19,507 nucleotides of DNA from an uncultured Nitrospiraceae bacterium (lineage in GTDB: Bacteria > Nitrospirota > Thermodesulfovibrionia > Thermodesulfovibrionales > Dissulfurispiraceae). Under the pieces are notes generated by a model, which worked only from the letters and a program-made list of their open reading frames with translations, had not been told where the DNA came from and ran no database searches. Every line of letters starts with the position of its first letter. Positions within the stretch are counted from its first letter, which is position 1. The translations under genes were made by a program, and so were the position numbers. The stretch is from the NCBI GenBank assembly GCA_947085205.1, contig CAMTVO010000003.1, forward strand, positions 1-19,507, written 5' to 3'. Of this stretch, positions 7,912 through 15,885 are shown piece by piece.

Positions 7912-8760
7912 TCAGCCTCCCATCCTCATGGATTCGAGCCTTGCTATCCTCTCGTCCATAGGCGGATGTGTGCTGAAAAGCTTTAAAAGTCCTCCGCCTG
8001 ATAACGGACTTACAATAAACATATGCGCTGTAGCAGGGTTTGCGTTCATCGGTATCCTCTGGGATGCCATGTGAAGTTTTTTAAGGGCGTTGGCGAGATG
8101 CATGGGACTGCCTGCTATGGCAGCGCCGCCCTTGTCCGCTCCGTATTCCCTTGAACGTGAAATCGCCATCTGAACGAGCATAGCGGCAATAGGGCCTACA
8201 ATCATCATTACAATGGATGCAATGGGATTGCTGCTGCCTTCCTCATCGTTATTCCTTCCGCCGAATATCATAGCCCACTGCGCCATCTGTGCAAGATAGC
8301 TTATTGCGCCTGCAATTGTAGCTGCAACTGTGCCTACGAGTATGTCCCTGTGCTTGATATGGGCAAGTTCGTGTCCTATCACACCTTCAAGCTCTTCCCT
8401 CGACAGAATTCTCATAATGCCTGCAGTTACAGCAACAACGCCTTTCTTAGGATTTCTGCCTGTAGCAAATGCATTGGGCTGGTCTTCATCCATAATATAA
8501 ACCATTGGCATTGGAAGTTCTGCCCTGTGAGCGAGCCTTCTTACCATGCCGTAAAGCTCCGGCGACTCTGCCTCGCTGACTTGCCTTGCGCGGTACATCT
8601 TGAGCACAATCTTGTCGCTGAACCAGTAGGTGATAAAGTTCATGCCGAAGGCCATTATAAGTGCAAATGTCATCCCAGACTTGCCACCTAACATACCCCC
8701 AATTGCCACGAGCATGAGGGTCAGGGTTACCATCAAAACCATTGTCTTTAATCCGTTCAT
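7912..8760 (-). CDS. htpX: Zinc metalloprotease HtpX (M48 family)
   Basis: [13 protein letters not shown] zinc motif, [15 protein letters not shown] and N-terminal TM helices; GGAGG SD. Confidence 0.96.
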
Positions 8761-8849
8761 TTTTTACACCTCCAAATTAAAAGACCTTTACTGCAACGAA
8801 TACTTATTAATAAATAGTTTACCAATAAATACTCACTGCGGTAAAGGTC

Positions 8850-8878
8850 TTGACATTTTATGTAACAAATGTTACTCT
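8850..8878 (+). promoter_or_regulatory. Sigma70-type promoter of the chrB operon
   Basis: TTGACA (8850-8855), 17-bp spacer, TACTCT (8873-8878), 30 nt upstream of ATG 8909. Confidence 0.7.
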
Positions 8879-8897
8879 CTAATCAAGAGTTACATAA
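8858..8897. promoter_or_regulatory. Putative operator (GTAAC/GTTAC inverted repeats) overlapping the promoter
   Basis: GTAAC-AAAT-GTTAC (8862-8875), and a perfect 9-bp inverted repeat TTATGTAAC (8858-8866) / GTTACATAA (8889-8897). Confidence 0.6.
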
Positions 8898-8908
8898 GTG
8901 AGGACGCA

Positions 8909-9913
8909 ATGGCAAAGCAAAAAACAAACAAACATAAAACAGGCACGACTGGATGGCTCCTGTTCTTTTACAGCGTCCCTTCAAGGCCTGTAAACAACAG
9001 GATGCGGATATGGAGAAAGCTGATAAAGTCAGGAGCAGTCCAGTTCAAAGGCGCTGTGTATATTCTCCCTTACTGCGAAGAAAACCACGAGTTTTTCATG
9101 TGGCTTGCATCAGAGGTCGCATTCATGAAAGGAGAAAGTGCATTTATCAGGACAGATGCTATTGAGACTATGGATGATAATGAAATTATTGCAGTCTTTA
9201 ACCGTCAGAGGGAAAGGGACTACGGCAATGTGCAAAAACATATCGATGAACTCGAAATAAAAACAAACAGTATACAAAAAGGTGCGGGCATACAGAACAT
9301 AAAAAAACTCTTAGAGCATCTCGCCAAATATTCAAAAGAATTCGAGGAGGTAAAAAAAATCGATTTCTTTTCATCAAAGGCAGGCGTAATCTTGCATAAA
9401 AAGATAGAATCCCTGAAGGCTGCTTTAAAAAACATATCCGGAGCCAAGACAGACAAACAGCCTCCCTCAATAATCCCCAGACGCATTGAAGACTATCATA
9501 GCCGGATGTGGGCCACAAGAAAAAATCCATTTGTTGACAGGATGGCCTCTGCATGGCTCATAAAAAAGCTTATCGACAGCAAGGCATCATTCAAGTTTAT
9601 TGATGAGCGAGACTTAAATGACCTCGGCAAAGAAATCGTCACCTTTGATATAAGAAGCGGAGAGTTCACGCATATCGGCGATATGTGCACATTCGAGGTC
9701 TTGGTTAAGTCATTCGGCATTAAAGACAGGGCGGTTAAAAAGATCGCATGGATTGTCCACGATATCGATATAAAAGACGACAAATACACAGCCCCTGAAG
9801 CAAAAGGCATCGAGGAAATTTTGACAGGTATAAGAAAAGCAGCAAAAGGAGACGCAGACGCTCTCGAAAGAGGGATGGCTGTATTTGAGATGCTTTATGC
9901 ATCTAAAACTTAA
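8909..9913 (+). CDS. chrB: Chromate resistance protein / regulator ChrB (N- and C-terminal domains)
   Basis: WLLFFYSVP...RMRIWRKL...GAVYILP (ChrB_N) and WATRKNPFVDRMASAWLI, FTHIGDMCTFEVL, IVHDID (ChrB_C). Start 8909 has a GAGG SD and lies just downstream of the promoter. Confidence 0.9.
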   Translation: MAKQKTNKHKTGTTGWLLFFYSVPSRPVNNRMRIWRKLIKSGAVQFKGAVYILPYCEENHEFFMWLASEVAFMKGESAFIRTDAIETMDDNEIIAVFNRQRERDYGNVQKHIDELEIKTNSIQKGAGIQNIKKLLEHLAKYSKEFEEVKKIDFFSSKAGVILHKKIESLKAALKNISGAKTDKQPPSIIPRRIEDYHSRMWATRKNPFVDRMASAWLIKKLIDSKASFKFIDERDLNDLGKEIVTFDIRSGEFTHIGDMCTFEVLVKSFGIKDRAVKKIAWIVHDIDIKDDKYTAPEAKGIEEILTGIRKAAKGDADALERGMAVFEMLYASKT

Positions 9914-9933: not shown

Positions 9934-10218
9934 ATGCCGCCGGTAGAAAAACATTTAAAGACAAGTCTTGAGAAGACAGGAAAGGAGTACAGGGAGGTTC
10001 ACGAATGGATTGACGGCGACCCTGCCAAAAAAGCCGAAAGGCATGATATCACAAAAATCCATGAATATGGTCAGATGTTTAAGGAGAAATACGGAGACGA
10101 AGCTCTTCAGGAATATTTGCAGCATATTCATGATGATGTTAAGTCAAAATTCAGTCATGTTCAGGAGGATCTGGAAAAAGCCGTTGCAGAAACTCTTACA
10201 TATTTTGGGGTGAAGTAA
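9934..10218 (+). CDS. Hypothetical His/Asp-rich protein, possibly metal-binding
   Basis: Strong SD AAGGAGG; 94 aa with H, HEWID, RH and QHIHDD motifs; lies inside the operon. Confidence 0.8.
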   Translation: MPPVEKHLKTSLEKTGKEYREVHEWIDGDPAKKAERHDITKIHEYGQMFKEKYGDEALQEYLQHIHDDVKSKFSHVQEDLEKAVAETLTYFGVK

Positions 10219-10236: not shown

Positions 10237-10944
10237 ATGGAAATAGAGCTTTTATACACAGGGGATTGTGCCCATTATAAGCTCGCTCGACGGCTCATTC
10301 ACGACACTCTCAAATCGCTCAAGCTCAATTGTCCATTGAAAAAGGTGGAGATCAAGACAGTAGAAGATGCTAAAACCCATTTGTTCGGCGGCTCTCCGAC
10401 GGTACGAATTGACGGCGAAGATGTTGAGCCAGAAACCGTAAGAGCTGCCGGACTGACCTGAAGGATATATGCGAATGGCACAGGGATGCCTGATTCAGAT
10501 GTATTGCGATGCAAGATTGCACAGGCATCTGGGCTGAGAACCATACTGTTTGTCTGCACAGGGAATTCCATTCGTTCACAGATGGCGGAGGCGCTGGTGA
10601 ATAATTTTTTGGGTCAAAGGTGGATTGCCTTTTCCGCAGGGATTATACCCACCGAACTTAACCCAAATGTCCTAAAAGTTATGAAAGAGATAGGCATTGA
10701 CATGAAAGGTCAAAGGGCAAAACATATCAATATATTTCATAACTGTTCTTTTACTAAGGTGATAACCTTGTGCTCTGATGCCGACCGGATGTGTCTTACC
10801 TATCCTGTCACCGATGAACAAGACCGCATAATATTTCATGATCCAATATCGTCTTATGGTCTTGGCTTTGGATCAATTACCTTATTCCGAACATTGCGAG
10901 ATGAAATTAAGCAAAAACTGTTGAAATATTTCAAAGGGGAATAG
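10237..10944 (+). CDS. arsC: Probable selenoprotein: DUF2703-like thioredoxin-fold domain (Cys11, Sec75 in U-R-I-Y) fused to an ArsC/LMW-PTP arsenate reductase-like domain; 235 aa
   Basis: ORFs 10237-10461 and 10486-10944 are in the same frame, separated only by TGA 10459-10461 and 8 sense codons (GLT-U-RIYANGTG-MPD). The upstream domain has GSPTVRIDGEDV, and this family normally continues CRxY. The downstream domain has ILFVCTGNSIRSQMAEA, VITLCSDADRMC, DP and FRTLRDEI. Confidence 0.8.
10462..10505 (+). promoter_or_regulatory. Putative bacterial SECIS hairpin
   Basis: Immediately 3' of the TGA, GATATAT pairs with ATGTATT (two G-U pairs) and GAAT pairs with ATTC. The top is either GGCA-CAGGGA-TGCC or CAGG-GATG-CCTG, giving a G-containing apical loop about 19-23 nt from the UGA. 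Confidence 0.6.
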
Positions 10945-10945
10945 T

Positions 10946-13900
10946 ATGGCAGCATTGTTTAAAAAATTATCAAAAAAAGACAGGTGCGTCCCTCTCATGC
11001 ACATTCAAGGTGGGGCTTCAAAAAAGTATAAAAACTTTAAACACTTCCTGAATCATAATTACACAGCGCTCAACCGCATGGCAGAAATGGAACAGATGTA
11101 TTATAGTGGCAAGCCATTTAGCCTTATCACTGCACAAATAAAATATCAGGAACTTTCAGAGGCTGTGATGGGGCTTGTTTATGCCCTTGAGAGTATGTCA
11201 CATGGCAAGTTTTCCAAGCTCATCAATATAATCAATGATATAGAGTCTGATATATTTGACTACTTTAGCCCGAAATTCTCTTTTCTCACAACAGACATTG
11301 TGGTTCCCCTCGAAAATATCATGCCTGAAATGAGGAGCATTGCCGGAGCAAAAGCTGCAAACCTCGCTGCCATAAAGAATGTTCTTGGTCTTCCCGTCCC
11401 GCATGGTTTTGTTGTTACCGCATATGCCTTCGATAGGTTCATCAAAGAGACAGGTCTTTCTAAACCGATAAAGAAGGAATTGGCAAGGATACCCTATCTT
11501 GATTCAGTCCATACAATGAGGAGGATGAGCGAAAAACTGAGAGGGATGGTCTTACAGGCAACCGTGCCTCCTTCTATCGCCGATGAAATAATAGGGGCAT
11601 ATGAATCCCTCGAAGAGAAGACTCAGAAGAACGTAAGAATCTCCATACGGAGCAGCGCCATCGGAGAGGATACAGAAGCGAGCTTTGCAGGTCAGTACGT
11701 TTCGGTCCTGAATGTCACGAAAGAGAACATACTCGAGGCTTACAAGACTGTGCTTGCGAGCAAATACTCCACTCGGGCGTTAACCTATATGTTCCAATAC
11801 GGACTCCATGACAGGGAGACGCCGATGGCCGCGATAGGACTCGCCATGGTTGACGCCGTATCAAGCGGGGTTGTCTATACATTAAACCCTTCGCAGGACA
11901 ACAGCCAGGCTGTAAAGATCAGCTCTGTATGGGGGCTTGGGGAGTATCTTGTCAGCGGGAATATATCTCCAGATGCATTTCTCGTTGACAGAGATGAAGA
12001 CCGTATAATAGAGCAGGATATAAGGAGAAAGGAACATAAGATAATCCGCCTCGAACAGGGCGGCACCAAGGTCGTTGAGGTTCCTGAGGGTGAAAAAGAC
12101 CTGCCCTCCATTGATAATGACGCCATTTTTATGATCAGGAACTATGCGCTTATGCTTGAGGATTTATTCAAAGGTCCCCAGGATGTGGAATGGGCCATCG
12201 GCAGTGACCGGAACCTCTATGTCCTCCAGTCCAGACCACTCAATATCCCTAAAATGCCCGATGTTCCTGATGTTGTTCAGAAGGAATACCCCGGCAACCC
12301 TGTGCTTTTTACCGGAGGCAAGACCGCCTCCTTTGGAATTGCCACGGGCAGGACATTTATTGCAGCAGAGGGAACTGACCTTTACGGGATTCCTGAAGAT
12401 TCGATCCTCGTGACAAAAACAGCCTCACCTGATTATGTGGCCGTGATTGATAAAATCAGAGGTATTATCACAGATACCGGAAGTGTCACTAGCCACATAT
12501 CTTCAGTGGCACGTGAATTTGGGGTCCCTGCCATAGTGGGAGCAAAGAATGTCACATCCATTTTAAAGGATGGCGACACAATCACCATGTCGGCTGATAC
12601 GGCTACTGTTTATGAAGGCATTGTTGATGAACTGCTTAAAAGCAGAATGCCATTTAAAAGATTGATTTTTGAAAGCCCTGTTCATCAAAGCATGAGGAAT
12701 ATACTTGATAAAATTTCTCCTTTAAACCTTATTGACCCAAATGACCCATTGTTTTGCCCTGAAGGATGCAAAACCATCCATGATATTATCAGATTTGCGC
12801 ACGAACATGCGATTAATCAGATGTTCGGCATCGCTGAAACACTGGAAAACAAGGATATATCTGTAAAGCTCACCTCGAATATTCCTTTGTACCTTTATCT
12901 CGTTGACCTTGGCAGAGGGCTTAAGGAAAATTTGACCACATGCAATGCGGTAACCCCTGACAAAATCGAATCCATACCCATGAAGGCAATCTGGAAGGGT
13001 TTTTCACATCCCGGGATCACATGGGCTGGAGCGATAAGCTTCGATACAAAGAAACTCATGACCCTTTTCGCCTCTGCTGCAACTTCAGAGTTCGGTGAAT
13101 CTCCAGGAGGCGCAAGTTATGGGATACTTTCAGGGGACTACATGAACCTTAGTGCACGTTTTGGCTATCATTTCGCAACGGTTGATGCGCTCTGTGGAGA
13201 AAACAGCGACCAAAACTATATCTCAATGCAGTTCTCAGGAGGGGTTGGTAGTTACTACGGGCGGTCTCTCAGGATTCAATTTCTGGGCAATGTTCTCGAA
13301 AAATTAGGATTTCAGGTATCCATAAAAGGCGACCTTATAGATGCCTTTATTTCCCGCTACGACAGACAATCTTTGGAGGAGAGGCTTGACCAGATGGGAA
13401 GATTGCTGGCATCCAGCCGTTTATTGGATATGGCCATTTCTAATCAGGAAGATGTGAAACTGCTTACAGATAGGTTTTTCAGCGGTGACTATAATTTCCT
13501 TTCCAGAAAGCGGGAGGATGAACCGGAGAATTTCTATATCCATGGCGGCTACTGGAAAAAAGTTGTCGAAAATAACCTCGCTTATTGCATGCAGGACGGC
13601 TCAAAATCAGGATACAGCATCTCCTCCGGAGTTGCTGGAATAATGGGAAAGCTCGTGGGGCAATCCCTTCAGGACTTCCTTGATACAGTGGAGGCCTACT
13701 ACTATTTTCCCATGGCTATCGCAAAGGGCAGCGAGATGTCTGACGGAAAAATAAGTGTCAGTGTCAAACCAGTTAAAGGAAATATCGACAGGGCAGGAGG
13801 AATCGCATTCGGCATACGGAACATTGCCAATTACTTCGTTTTCAGGATTAACGCTCTGGAAGACAATGTGATACTCTTTGAATACATCAATAACAAACGT

Positions 13901-14137
13901 ATGCCGAGGGCTGTGGCAAAGGAATCCATAGAGTCCGGCAGATGGTATAATCTCTGCGTGGAGATCAGGGGAAATATTATTAGCGGATATATAGACGACA
14001 GACAGGTTTTAGAGTATGCATCTGAGAGCCCCCTGCAGGGATTAGCAGGGCTATGGACAAAGGCGGATTCGGTAACATATTTTGAAGGGTTGACAATCCA
14101 GACAGACAGCCAAAAAACAAAAATATCATGCACCTAA
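10946..14137 (+). CDS. PEP-synthase/pyruvate,water dikinase-like enzyme: ATP-grasp, phospho-His swivel, non-canonical domain and C-terminal beta-sandwich (DUF1080/concanavalin-like)
   Basis: GAKAANL, LPVPHGFVVT, IRSSAIGED...SFAGQY, QDVEWA and LQSRP (PPDK_N), then GSVTSHISSVAREFGVPAIVG (His domain). No PEP-binding TIM barrel is evident. The tail GNIDRAGGIAF...NALEDNV...GLWTKADSVTYF is beta-rich. Confidence 0.85.
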   Translation: MAALFKKLSKKDRCVPLMHIQGGASKKYKNFKHFLNHNYTALNRMAEMEQMYYSGKPFSLITAQIKYQELSEAVMGLVYALESMSHGKFSKLINIINDIESDIFDYFSPKFSFLTTDIVVPLENIMPEMRSIAGAKAANLAAIKNVLGLPVPHGFVVTAYAFDRFIKETGLSKPIKKELARIPYLDSVHTMRRMSEKLRGMVLQATVPPSIADEIIGAYESLEEKTQKNVRISIRSSAIGEDTEASFAGQYVSVLNVTKENILEAYKTVLASKYSTRALTYMFQYGLHDRETPMAAIGLAMVDAVSSGVVYTLNPSQDNSQAVKISSVWGLGEYLVSGNISPDAFLVDRDEDRIIEQDIRRKEHKIIRLEQGGTKVVEVPEGEKDLPSIDNDAIFMIRNYALMLEDLFKGPQDVEWAIGSDRNLYVLQSRPLNIPKMPDVPDVVQKEYPGNPVLFTGGKTASFGIATGRTFIAAEGTDLYGIPEDSILVTKTASPDYVAVIDKIRGIITDTGSVTSHISSVAREFGVPAIVGAKNVTSILKDGDTITMSADTATVYEGIVDELLKSRMPFKRLIFESPVHQSMRNILDKISPLNLIDPNDPLFCPEGCKTIHDIIRFAHEHAINQMFGIAETLENKDISVKLTSNIPLYLYLVDLGRGLKENLTTCNAVTPDKIESIPMKAIWKGFSHPGITWAGAISFDTKKLMTLFASAATSEFGESPGGASYGILSGDYMNLSARFGYHFATVDALCGENSDQNYISMQFSGGVGSYYGRSLRIQFLGNVLEKLGFQVSIKGDLIDAFISRYDRQSLEERLDQMGRLLASSRLLDMAISNQEDVKLLTDRFFSGDYNFLSRKREDEPENFYIHGGYWKKVVENNLAYCMQDGSKSGYSISSGVAGIMGKLVGQSLQDFLDTVEAYYYFPMAIAKGSEMSDGKISVSVKPVKGNIDRAGGIAFGIRNIANYFVFRINALEDNVILFEYINNKRMPRAVAKESIESGRWYNLCVEIRGNIISGYIDDRQVLEYASESPLQGLAGLWTKADSVTYFEGLTIQTDSQKTKISCT

Positions 14138-14149
14138 GAAGGAGGTTTT

Positions 14150-14701
14150 ATGAGTTACAACATTAAGAATACGGATATTGAAATTCTCAGAAAGGCAGGG
14201 GTGTCGGAAGACGATATCAAACATTGCGTTAAAGTAGCTGAAAAGGCTCTTGAGATTGCAGAGCGCACAAAGTCAAATGTAGATATGGAGCTTGTCGGAA
14301 GAGGCGCATTGTTTCATGACCTCGGCAAAGCAAAGACCCATGCAATGGAACATGGCAAGATCGGCGCAGAAATGGGAAAAGAGTTGGGCTTGCCTGAAGC
14401 CATAACAGATTTAATGGAAAAACATATCAGGGGCGGACTTACCGAAGATGAGGCAAAAGAACTCGGCCTGCCTGTAAAGGACTATACTCTGAAGAGGCTT
14501 GAGGAGAGAATTGTCATATATGCCGACAGGCTTGTGGATATAATCACAGAAGGCATTGTGGATATTAAAGGTGATGAATTGGAGGCTGAAAGGAGATTTG
14601 AAGAGATATTAAGGGAATACCCAAAATACGGAAAGAACGAAATAACCCTTGACCGTTATCTCGGCTATCACAGGGAGATTCAGGGATTGATGGGAAAATG
14701 A
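14150..14701 (+). CDS. HD-domain metal-dependent phosphohydrolase (HDIG/TIGR00295-like)
   Basis: KHCVKV, GALFHDLGK, EHGKIG, EKHIRGG and IVIYADRL motifs; SD AAGGAGG. Confidence 0.9.
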   Translation: MSYNIKNTDIEILRKAGVSEDDIKHCVKVAEKALEIAERTKSNVDMELVGRGALFHDLGKAKTHAMEHGKIGAEMGKELGLPEAITDLMEKHIRGGLTEDEAKELGLPVKDYTLKRLEERIVIYADRLVDIITEGIVDIKGDELEAERRFEEILREYPKYGKNEITLDRYLGYHREIQGLMGK

Positions 14702-15885
14702 CCTTCAGTCCGTTCCTGCTGCTATGCACCACAGGGCTTTTCGCCATTTTCAGTTCAACAATAGCAAAAAGCCCTGTGCTGCCCCTTTTTGCGACCCACT
14801 TAGGCGCTGATCCCTCCGGTGTCGGCATAGTTGCAGCATTGTCAGCATTTACAGGCATAATTGCGAGCATACCAGCGGGAATGCTTTCAGACAGATTCGG
14901 CAGGCAAAAGATGCTCATCTTTTCGCTGCTCATATTTGCAACAGCGCCTTTTCTGTATTTGCCGGTAACCCAAATCTGGCAGCTTGCTATAGTGAGATTC
15001 TATCACGGCTTTGCCACGGCCATATTCATCCCTGTTGCAATGGCGCTTGTCGCAGACCTTTTTCATACAGAGAGGGGAGAAAAGATGGGGTGGTTTTCCA
15101 CATCAACCCTTATTGGCAGATTTATGGCTCCGATAGTCGGAGGCAGCATCATAGGCGCAATGGTCTTTAATCCCGGCCTTAGTTATAAGATTGTGTATCT
15201 TGTATGCGGCGTGGCAGGCGTAATTGCCCTTATACTTACATTTAAATTGCCATCCGCCCATGATAAGAAAATCGAAAAACGAGACTGGGAAGAGACATTC
15301 GCATCTTTTAAATCGGTGCTATCAAACAGGCTTATCCTCATCACTGCAGGAGTCGAGGCTGCAATACTCTTTGCATACGGGACATTCGAGACATTTCTGC
15401 CGCTCTACGCGATAAAATCAGGCATCAGCGCCTATGAGGTCGGCGTATTCCTTTCTGCGCAGGTAATCACACTGGCGCTTACAAAGCCGATAATGGGAAG
15501 GTTTTCCGACAAACACGGAAGACAGCAGCAGATATTCGGCGGCGCATTAATCGGCGCTGTATGTATTGGAAGCTTTTCTTTATTTCAGTCATTCGTCCCT
15601 CTTCTTGTATTGAGCATATTATTCGGGCTGAGCTTATCGGTTGTCACTTCCGCCACATCCGCATTCATAGCCGATTTGAGCAAAAAGGAGACTCACGGTT
15701 CTGCGATGGGGATTTTAGGCTCGATAATGGACATGGGGCATACGGCAGGCCCGCTGATTTCGGGATTTGTGGCTGCATATTTAGGCTTCGGAAAGGCATT
15801 TATAGGAGCAGGGGTAGTCCTTGCAGCAGCCGGCATTGTATTTTTAGCGGGAGTAAGGCTTCGGCAAGTCCCAAGCAATAGTTGA
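14698..15885 (+). CDS. MFS transporter (DHA1-like, about 12 TM helices)
   Basis: Motif A occurs twice (GMLSDRFGRQ and GRFSDKHGRQ); ATGA overlap with the HD gene. Confidence 0.93.
   Translation: MTFSPFLLLCTTGLFAIFSSTIAKSPVLPLFATHLGADPSGVGIVAALSAFTGIIASIPAGMLSDRFGRQKMLIFSLLIFATAPFLYLPVTQIWQLAIVRFYHGFATAIFIPVAMALVADLFHTERGEKMGWFSTSTLIGRFMAPIVGGSIIGAMVFNPGLSYKIVYLVCGVAGVIALILTFKLPSAHDKKIEKRDWEETFASFKSVLSNRLILITAGVEAAILFAYGTFETFLPLYAIKSGISAYEVGVFLSAQVITLALTKPIMGRFSDKHGRQQQIFGGALIGAVCIGSFSLFQSFVPLLVLSILFGLSLSVVTSATSAFIADLSKKETHGSAMGILGSIMDMGHTAGPLISGFVAAYLGFGKAFIGAGVVLAAAGIVFLAGVRLRQVPSNS

Follow-up and report, generated by a model that had tools for sequence, protein, structure and literature searches.

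Low-molecular-weight (LMW) protein tyrosine and arginine phosphatases pair with a BY-kinase or with McsB. Arsenate reductases (ArsC) of the thioredoxin-coupled type possess a triad of cysteines, the last disulfide of which is reduced by thioredoxin, according to the available text of PMC2714181. Families TIGR00014 (UxxS) and NF041106 (UxxC), as described in the accessible part of PMC13188914, are also selenoproteins that bear an arsenate-reductase label. The DF family, the 'hypothetical protein DF' of deep-Sep, is a predicted selenoprotein whose function is not known (PMC12013277, available text). Both this family and the gain of selenocysteine (Sec) in place of Cys, of which 33 events in 17 families are counted in the available part of PMC1794560, are therefore already known.

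Pairs of a dikinase-type gene and a phosphatase have been described in the 'nitrate cluster' DVU0245-DVU0251 of Desulfovibrio, which also has a link to anion transport. As far as the available text of PMC4001038 goes, DVU0246 of D. vulgaris (PPDK_N plus a mobile domain) lies beside the PTP/dual-specificity phosphatase DVU0245, and the mutants show opposite (nitrate) phenotypes; in D. alaskensis G20, the fitness of the phosphatase mutant has the same sign as that of the dikinase-like mutant.

Here we describe a locus of an uncultured Nitrospiraceae bacterium, in which a DF domain is joined across an in-frame TGA to an ArsC/LMW-PTP-fold domain. The window, that is, the whole stretch of DNA that was analysed, comprises 19,507 nucleotides.

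Results

A frame of 235 aa interrupted by one TGA

The full readthrough gene occupies positions 10237..10944 of the plus strand. The frame is interrupted only once, by the TGA of codon 75 (10459..10461), and encodes a DF domain followed by an ArsC/LMW-PTP-fold domain, 235 aa in total, when the TGA is read as Sec. The two ORFs are thus in frame across the TGA, as the preliminary description had it, and the product contains the motifs quoted there. Full-length Cys orthologs are 45–69% identical to this protein, and the best named relative, from a Nitrospirota metagenome-assembled genome, is 68% identical.

An ATG at 10486..10488 (plus strand; Met84), about where natural short relatives begin, is the gene-caller start of a 152-aa product. 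This downstream piece stands as a separate protein in a public collection that has NCBI among its sources, and gene callers therefore do split the gene, as had been anticipated. We observed no SD-like motif before ATG 10486; the true gene start itself has only a weak one. A promoter/terminator scan gave results at chance level (15 versus 14.9).

Two alleles, P0122 and P0123, are known as proteins only. Their 74-aa products are 91% and 86% identical and end at the same Thr74, and their C-terminal counterparts come from contigs of equal size. A sequencing error at the TGA was ruled out, as these other alleles stop at the same place. Among four sequencing runs, one contig (from another study) crosses the TGA, within 10 nt of the contig end and hence too close to it to be taken as evidence. 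An alternative genetic code was also ruled out, because TGA ends 246 of the 840 long ORFs of the genome.

The in-frame TGA very probably encodes selenocysteine

The source genome (89.7% complete) carries selA, selB, a Sec-type selD and a tRNA-Sec, all above their cut-offs. The selD gene has an in-frame TGA of its own, and the anticodon of the tRNA-Sec is TCA. The machinery that a hidden selenoprotein would call for (selA/selB/selC/selD) is therefore present.

As a reference we picked, by eye, 11 other readthrough genes from a codon-score scan of the source genome, and in 10 of these family models were matched across the TGA. The scan missed the target gene itself (its downstream score is near zero), and the reference list is accordingly incomplete. 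The nucleotide after the UGA showed no bias among these reference genes.

Some further candidates of the source genome are recorded here as separate observations. A NuoB gene (L164; G000:C59:36455-36976, minus strand) passes the NuoB cut-offs; a TGA lies in frame where its GLACC-type motif has the first Cys, and a SECIS-like hairpin accompanies it. A term search in the available text of a 2026 selenoproteome review gave no mention of NuoB. A YeeE/TsuA-like transporter (L166; G000:C38:33817-34911) has two in-frame TGAs, both with hairpins. A 114-aa DsrE-like readthrough candidate (L168; G000:C62:10785-11129; UTGC) also has a hairpin, and no NCBIfam model matches it at 1e-5.

The TGA of the target lies in the Sec column of the DF family. 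Across 251 genomes of the class, 42 of the 49 DF matches contain one TGA. When 31 DF loci were scored automatically, the TGA fell in the same column in 28; L243 agrees by eye, and of the remaining two, one is a DUF2703 protein and the other a degenerate fusion. Among fused full-length homologs, Cys occupies the TGA column in 24 of 31 (the loop Cys is lost in the other seven) and the Cys11 position in 28 of 31, and the 16 closest have both. Homologs with Cys at column 75, and fused ones among them, had been proposed as a check on the prediction, and both exist.

The alternative that the TGA is a true stop has to be weighed at this point. It would have arisen by a nonsense change from TGC to TGA, the 152-aa domain would restart at Met84, and the N-terminal fragment would be a relic or a separate, inactive peptide. 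Short forms that begin near Met84 are indeed common and keep the partner gene described below, the loop Cys is dispensable enough to be lost in the seven homologs just mentioned, and in the allele P0127 position 79 may be a start codon. However, the stop lies exactly in the family Sec column and is common to alleles that have diverged by 9–14% without any other break. These alleles differ from each other at 7–10 of 74 residues in the N-domain and at 7–9 of 152 in the C-domain, and a Cys pair of equal distance differs at 8/74 and 8/151, respectively. As the N-domain divergence of the alleles matches that of the Cys pair, no relaxation of the N-domain is seen. Codons 76–83, which a stop at the TGA and a restart at Met84 would leave untranslated, are conserved: compared with the nearest Cys ortholog they show five synonymous and no non-synonymous codon differences. 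In an independent run, the differences listed comprised 15 synonymous and 7 non-synonymous codons, with 5 of the 14 N-domain differences among those listed. The lack of an SD-like motif before ATG 10486 and the presence of a hairpin also speak against a restart. We consider a true stop quite improbable.

In P0107, a close relative, the DF domain runs into unrelated sequence past residue 68; this may be a broken gene, which would suit a decaying N-domain, or a chimeric contig.

The SECIS-like stem-loop, reported earlier as directly following the TGA, was found at 10464..10505 (plus strand), starting 2 nt past the TGA. It folds at -11.3 kcal/mol, and the segment 10455-10530 gave z = -2.3 against shuffles. 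The published SECIS criteria, in the available text of PMC13188914, include a G within the first two loop positions. The minimum-free-energy loop, CAGGGA, has its G third and misses this rule, whereas an alternative fold only 0.2 kcal/mol higher, with an apical hairpin at 10481-10492 whose 4-nt loop begins with G and lies 23 nt downstream of the UGA, conforms to all four criteria given there. A looser test of our own, set after viewing the reference TGAs, was passed by the target, by 10 of 12 reference TGAs, by 32 of 416 ordinary TGA stops and by one of seven Cys orthologs, and also by 196 of 1000 synonymous recodings of the target. We take the hairpin as modest, supportive evidence for Sec. 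In a Cys ortholog (L080, genome G114), a hairpin occupies the register of the alternative SECIS fold, either as a remnant or by chance.

On these sequence-based grounds, the UGA is very probably decoded as Sec. The machinery is present, other alleles stop at codon 75 and homologs carry Cys there, so none of the three objections that the preliminary description had foreseen holds.

Sec appears to have been gained recently from Cys

We found the full-length fusion in 7 of 401 genomes of the phylum. The TGA is confined to the source genome and the other six use Cys, a distribution that also agrees with a true stop. All six Cys-fusion genomes have selA, and a change from Sec to Cys by loss of the machinery was therefore ruled out. 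A quick tree of 78 rows, built on the catalytic domain, places the TGA alleles within the Cys fusions (84), with the Cys-bearing P0002/P0129 as their sister group (SH-aLRT 97). The simplest reading of this tree would be a single, apparently recent, gain of Sec from Cys on the branch to the small TGA clade. Identity between the DF domain of the target and the class's standalone Sec branch is only 23–29%. As it belongs to the Cys-type fused branch and not to that standalone branch, its Sec looks independently gained.

A metagenome scan with the pattern (C/U)RxYxNG..PD returned 23 stretches and no further TGA fusion; 22 were unrelated or out of frame, and one was a real Cys fusion of another branch. 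The preliminary description knew of no characterised fusion of this kind. The DF-ArsC fusion as such is common with Cys and only its Sec form is rare; NCBI already labels one Cys fusion (P0003) 'DF family (seleno)protein'. The literature searched, with few subscription journals among it, gave no description of the DF-ArsC fusion, of its Sec form or of the PPDK-like link. A term search of the available text of the BSepDB paper (PMC13326102) gave no such fusion either, and the database itself or the supplements of papers may list one.

A thioredoxin-fold domain probably tethered to an ArsC-like domain

The DF domain comprises residues 1-97 (10237..10527, plus strand) and is an MJ0307-like small thioredoxin fold with an inserted loop of ~20 residues that bears the predicted Sec. 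With C in place of U it scores 75.4 bits against the cut-off of 70 of NCBIfam NF049942, 'DF family (seleno)protein', and shares the Sec column of that family. It differs from standalone DF proteins in being fused to an ArsC/LMW-PTP-fold domain. The Pfam model DUF2703 (PF10865, cut-off 23.6 bits) did not match the protein at E<=0.1. As judged by sequence comparison, DUF2703 is a more distant relative of the DF domain, so that of the earlier label 'DUF2703-like' the relation to this small thioredoxin-fold family stands and membership in DUF2703 does not. The thioredoxin fold itself was borne out by a profile match to 1fo5 (E=1.8e-5) and by structure comparison (Z 6-7 with Trx/Grx folds over residues 1-99); the model of the whole protein has a pLDDT of 87.7 and a pTM of 0.85. 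Cys11 (10267..10269, plus strand) aligns with the first Cys of the Trx CxxC in 1fo5. The classical motif is absent, residues 11-14 being CAHY with the second Cys replaced, and a thioredoxin-like action would depend on the distal Sec75. Cys11 and Sec75 are 64 residues apart, and Pro54 is conserved.

The ArsC/LMW-PTP-fold domain (residues 98-235; 10528..10941, plus strand) matches Pfam LMWPc (PF01451) with 55.8 bits against a cut-off of 23.2. The ArsC models TIGR02691 and NF010053 were not reached (102.1/215 and 98.9/174.3 bits), and neither TIGR00014 nor NF041106 matches the protein at E<=0.1. The best structural match of residues 98-235 is the Trx-coupled ArsC 8p5n (Z 18.9, rmsd 2.4, 138 residues aligned); LMW-PTP folds gave Z 13.7-15.6 for the catalytic domain. 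The Cys of the P-loop C107-T-G-N-S-I-R113 (CX5R; 10555..10575, plus strand) is shared by 108 of the 110 subfamily proteins. When the domain is aligned with 1jl3 and 2cd7, the redox helix Cys179-X6-Cys186 (10771..10794, plus strand) falls at Cys82/Cys89 of Trx-coupled ArsC, and these residues are kept in 110/110 and 107/110 subfamily proteins, many of them closely related. Asp202-Pro203, which we take to be the general-acid position, is followed by the subfamily-specific hydrophobic loop YGLGFG (together 10840..10875, plus strand; model confidence is low at 207-210). The three ArsC-type cysteines that had been read from the sequence, Cys107, Cys179 and Cys186, are therefore present, in the setting of CX5R, CX6C and Asp-Pro.

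The domain thus has the fold, CX5R, the CX6C redox helix and Asp-Pro in common with the Trx-coupled ArsCs of S. aureus pI258 and B. subtilis. Unlike these, it scores below the cut-offs, has Ile/Val before the P-loop Arg and a hydrophobic GFG loop, lies outside any ars operon, is linked or fused to a PPDK-like enzyme and bears a tethered Trx-fold domain. With the LMW phosphatases (Wzb, YwlE and PtpA; PF01451) it shares the fold, the P-loop Cys/Arg and the logic of a kinase partner, but it is closer in sequence to ArsC, has the ArsC redox helix and has an ATP-grasp/phospho-His partner. In the quick tree the catalytic domain forms its own, well-separated subfamily clade. Sec, unlike that of the TIGR00014 and NF041106 selenoproteins, would sit in an accessory domain and not in the catalytic site.

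DF has joined ArsC-fold domains more than once: in the target subfamily, in a second branch (CVANSARS plus CX4C), one member of which (P0177) is fused to an ArsM-like methyltransferase, and in a DUF2703 fusion. In trans, one cluster (L272:2576-6125) contains ArsP, DUF2703, a standalone Sec-type DF, ArsR and ArsC. Such recurrent association of DF with enzymes of the ArsC fold, in cis as well as in trans, makes a built-in reductant plausible and favours a redox or metalloid-handling partner role for DF. At the same time, many relatives lack the DF domain or its loop Cys, and the source genome has free Trx and TrxR. The Cys11/Sec75 pair had been proposed as a built-in reductant of the ArsC cascade; from these comparisons that role is plausible, but as an optional and dispensable one.

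In two proteins, P0292 and P0033, a membrane domain of the lysylphosphatidylglycerol-synthase type (assigned to PF03706 in P0292) is joined to the DF-ArsC-like domain, and the Cys of the DF loop is missing. At L258:1492-2475, a Sec-type DF is read through into MerB and adjoins a MerA-like oxidoreductase.

The MerB locus, together with the Sec-type DF of ars-type clusters, could be taken to mean that Sec is inserted but that Cys11/Sec75 forms a metal(loid) site, for As(III) or Hg(II), that gates or feeds the catalytic domain. The absence of a CxxC and the wide spacing of the pair agree with such a site, and for some families Sec has been noted as a possible ligand of metals (PMC13188914, available part). 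Against this, the domain folds like Trx, its Cys11 occupies the nucleophile position and its Pro54 is conserved, and it is fused to a domain bearing the very disulfide that Trx normally reduces (PMC2714181, available part). We regard a metal(loid) site in place of a disulfide reductase as improbable.

A PPDK-like enzyme is the conserved partner

The gene is followed, 1 nt after its stop codon, by that of a 1063-aa PPDK-like protein (10946..14137, plus strand). This partner comprises a PPDK_N ATP-binding (ATP-grasp) domain, a phospho-His domain in which His517 is invariant, a domain of ~290 aa and a C-terminal lectin-like domain. It lacks the PEP/pyruvate-binding barrel (PF02896), Pfam giving only PF01326 and PF00391, and the PEP synthase model stays below its cut-off (347/598 bits). 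For its domain 561-845 there was no Foldseek match under 0.001, Atlas scores were under 0.9 and the best Z was 8.0, the model having a pLDDT of 63.8. The corresponding part of the window (12626-13480) encodes a conserved domain of ~285 aa without a clear known fold that occurs in 141 of the 401 genomes. A second, shorter PPDK-like paralog (845 aa; L225:3455-5992, G000:C38) adjoins a response regulator elsewhere in the source genome.

A PPDK-like enzyme of ~1060 aa lies directly after the ArsC-fold gene in 17 of 20 subfamily loci. In addition, 10 of the 15 longer database matches (10 protein clusters) are in-frame LMWPc-PPDK fusions, none with a DF core. At partner loci without this ArsC-fold gene, an unrelated PP2C phosphatase lies directly downstream in 6 of 24, against 0 of 17 with one (Fisher p = 0.03, the loci being kin and not independent); the other 18 show no PP2C in the fetched stretch, some of these stretches being short. 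No PP2C was found in a search of the source genome.

The surrounding genes are a ChrB of the chromate-resistance regulator family (8630..9913, plus strand), whose true start is probably later than the listed GTG, a 94-aa protein of no known family that recurs in the same clusters (9934..10218, plus strand), and, co-directional downstream, a TIGR00295-like HD-domain protein (14150..14701, plus strand) and an MFS transporter (14698..15885, plus strand). ChrA, ChrB and MFS genes recur in related loci, and TauE and phosphonate-binding genes in some of them. In L151 and L157 the 94-aa protein is again encoded next to the PPDK-like gene, and 94-aa ORFs, matched by size and place only, occur at the same place in L199, L207, L217 and L221. 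By domain make-up the locus can be likened to the Desulfovibrio cluster, which differs in its PTP/dual-specificity phosphatase, in the shorter DVU0246 (2235 bp) and, in the part of the source available, in having no Trx or Sec part.

We observed no ars operon around the gene, and no ars genes among the scanned neighbours of the subfamily. Searches of the source genome for Acr3, ArsB and ArsP found none, nor was Acr3 found in G055 (100% complete). No second LMWPc gene was found in the source genome. Elsewhere in the genomes of relatives, Acr3 is over its cut-off in 10 of 19; 12 of the 19 have a second LMWPc gene and seven only one, and 4 of the 10 acr3 loci carry a canonical ArsC of their own. 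In four genomes (G114, G214, G202 and G312), Acr3 is present and the target ortholog is the only LMWPc-family gene found.

These counts bear on the possibility that the protein is a self-sufficient arsenate reductase, in which Sec is inserted, the Cys107/179/186 cascade acts on arsenate or another oxyanion, Cys11/Sec75 is a tethered thioredoxin and the PPDK-like link would serve to shield a phosphoryl-transfer enzyme from arsenate. All ArsC catalytic residues are kept, the best structural matches are ArsCs, the gene is the sole LMWPc gene of the source genome and of seven relatives, four of which have Acr3, and DF is found with arsenic genes in the L272 cluster and in the separate DF-ArsC fusions, one with an ArsM-like domain. 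On the other side stand the scores below both ArsC cut-offs, the well-separated subfamily, the lack of ars genes among the scanned neighbours and of an exporter in the searched genome, the second LMWPc gene in most relatives, the canonical ArsC at some acr3 loci, and the fusions that tie the domain to the PPDK-like enzyme. A self-sufficient arsenate reductase is therefore doubtful, and the arsenate-reductase role assumed in the preliminary description is not upheld as the main one: the conserved partner is PPDK-like, not an ars gene, and the searches of the 89.7%-complete genome gave neither Acr3 nor ArsB nor ArsP.

Discussion

The constant PPDK-like neighbour suggests a redox-controlled phosphatase partner rather than an ordinary arsenic-detoxification protein. 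Our tentative reading, which we put forward at somewhat less than even confidence, is that the protein is a selenoprotein phosphatase acting against the neighbouring dikinase-type enzyme, and that its own ArsC cascade and Cys11/Sec75 keep or gate its catalytic Cys. In comparisons of gene order and sequence, this is favoured by the adjacency of the partner in 17/20 loci, by 10/15 fusions and by PP2C occurring in the same slot (6/24 versus 0/17). By analogy, it is in line with the opposite phenotypes of DVU0245 and DVU0246, and it agrees with the failure to find an arsenite exporter in the source genome or Acr3 in G055. Several observations speak against it. Cys179 and Cys186 are strictly conserved, as would be expected of a reductase more than of a plain phosphatase, the domain resembles ArsC more than it does LMW-PTPs, four genomes have Acr3 with a sole LMWPc gene, 18 of 24 partner loci show no PP2C, and the G20 mutants have fitness effects of the same sign in the available text of PMC4001038.

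Under the phosphatase reading, the UGA would be read as Sec with the help of the downstream hairpin, giving one 235-aa protein whose Sec75 derives from Cys on the branch to the small TGA clade. The C-terminal domain would be a separate ArsC/LMW-PTP subfamily that cooperates with the PPDK-like enzyme. The latter may use ATP and a phospho-His (His517) to phosphorylate some acceptor, from which the P-loop Cys107 would strip the phosphate, thereby tuning the chromate/oxyanion transport cluster. Oxidants, or oxyanions like arsenate, would have access to Cys107, and the oxidation would be passed to Cys179-Cys186 as in ArsC. Where present, Cys11/Sec75 may re-reduce Cys179-Cys186 in cis, and Trx/TrxR would then recycle the pair.

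A broader and more speculative extension, which we think unlikely, is a widespread and hitherto undescribed signalling module in which a dikinase-type kinase controls oxyanion transport and is opposed by interchangeable PP2C, PTP or ArsC-fold phosphatases. Here, the ArsC-fold domain would use its own disulfide cascade to sense arsenate, chromate or oxidants and be reset by a tethered Sec thioredoxin recently derived from a Cys form.

The locus adds a selenoprotein architecture that annotation splits. It also provides a rare close Sec/Cys pair, 68% identical and from two Sec-competent hosts, through which the replacement of Cys by Sec, and the way a SECIS arises within a coding sequence, can be tested directly. 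The orphan DF family gains a concrete candidate substrate, the redox helix of ArsC. In genomes of the Nitrospirota type, members of this subfamily that carry the label 'arsenate reductase ArsC' may have another role than arsenic resistance, and their linkage offers a pointer to the function of the abundant 'PEP-synthase-like' enzymes without a PEP domain, related C-domains of which occur in 141 of 401 genomes.
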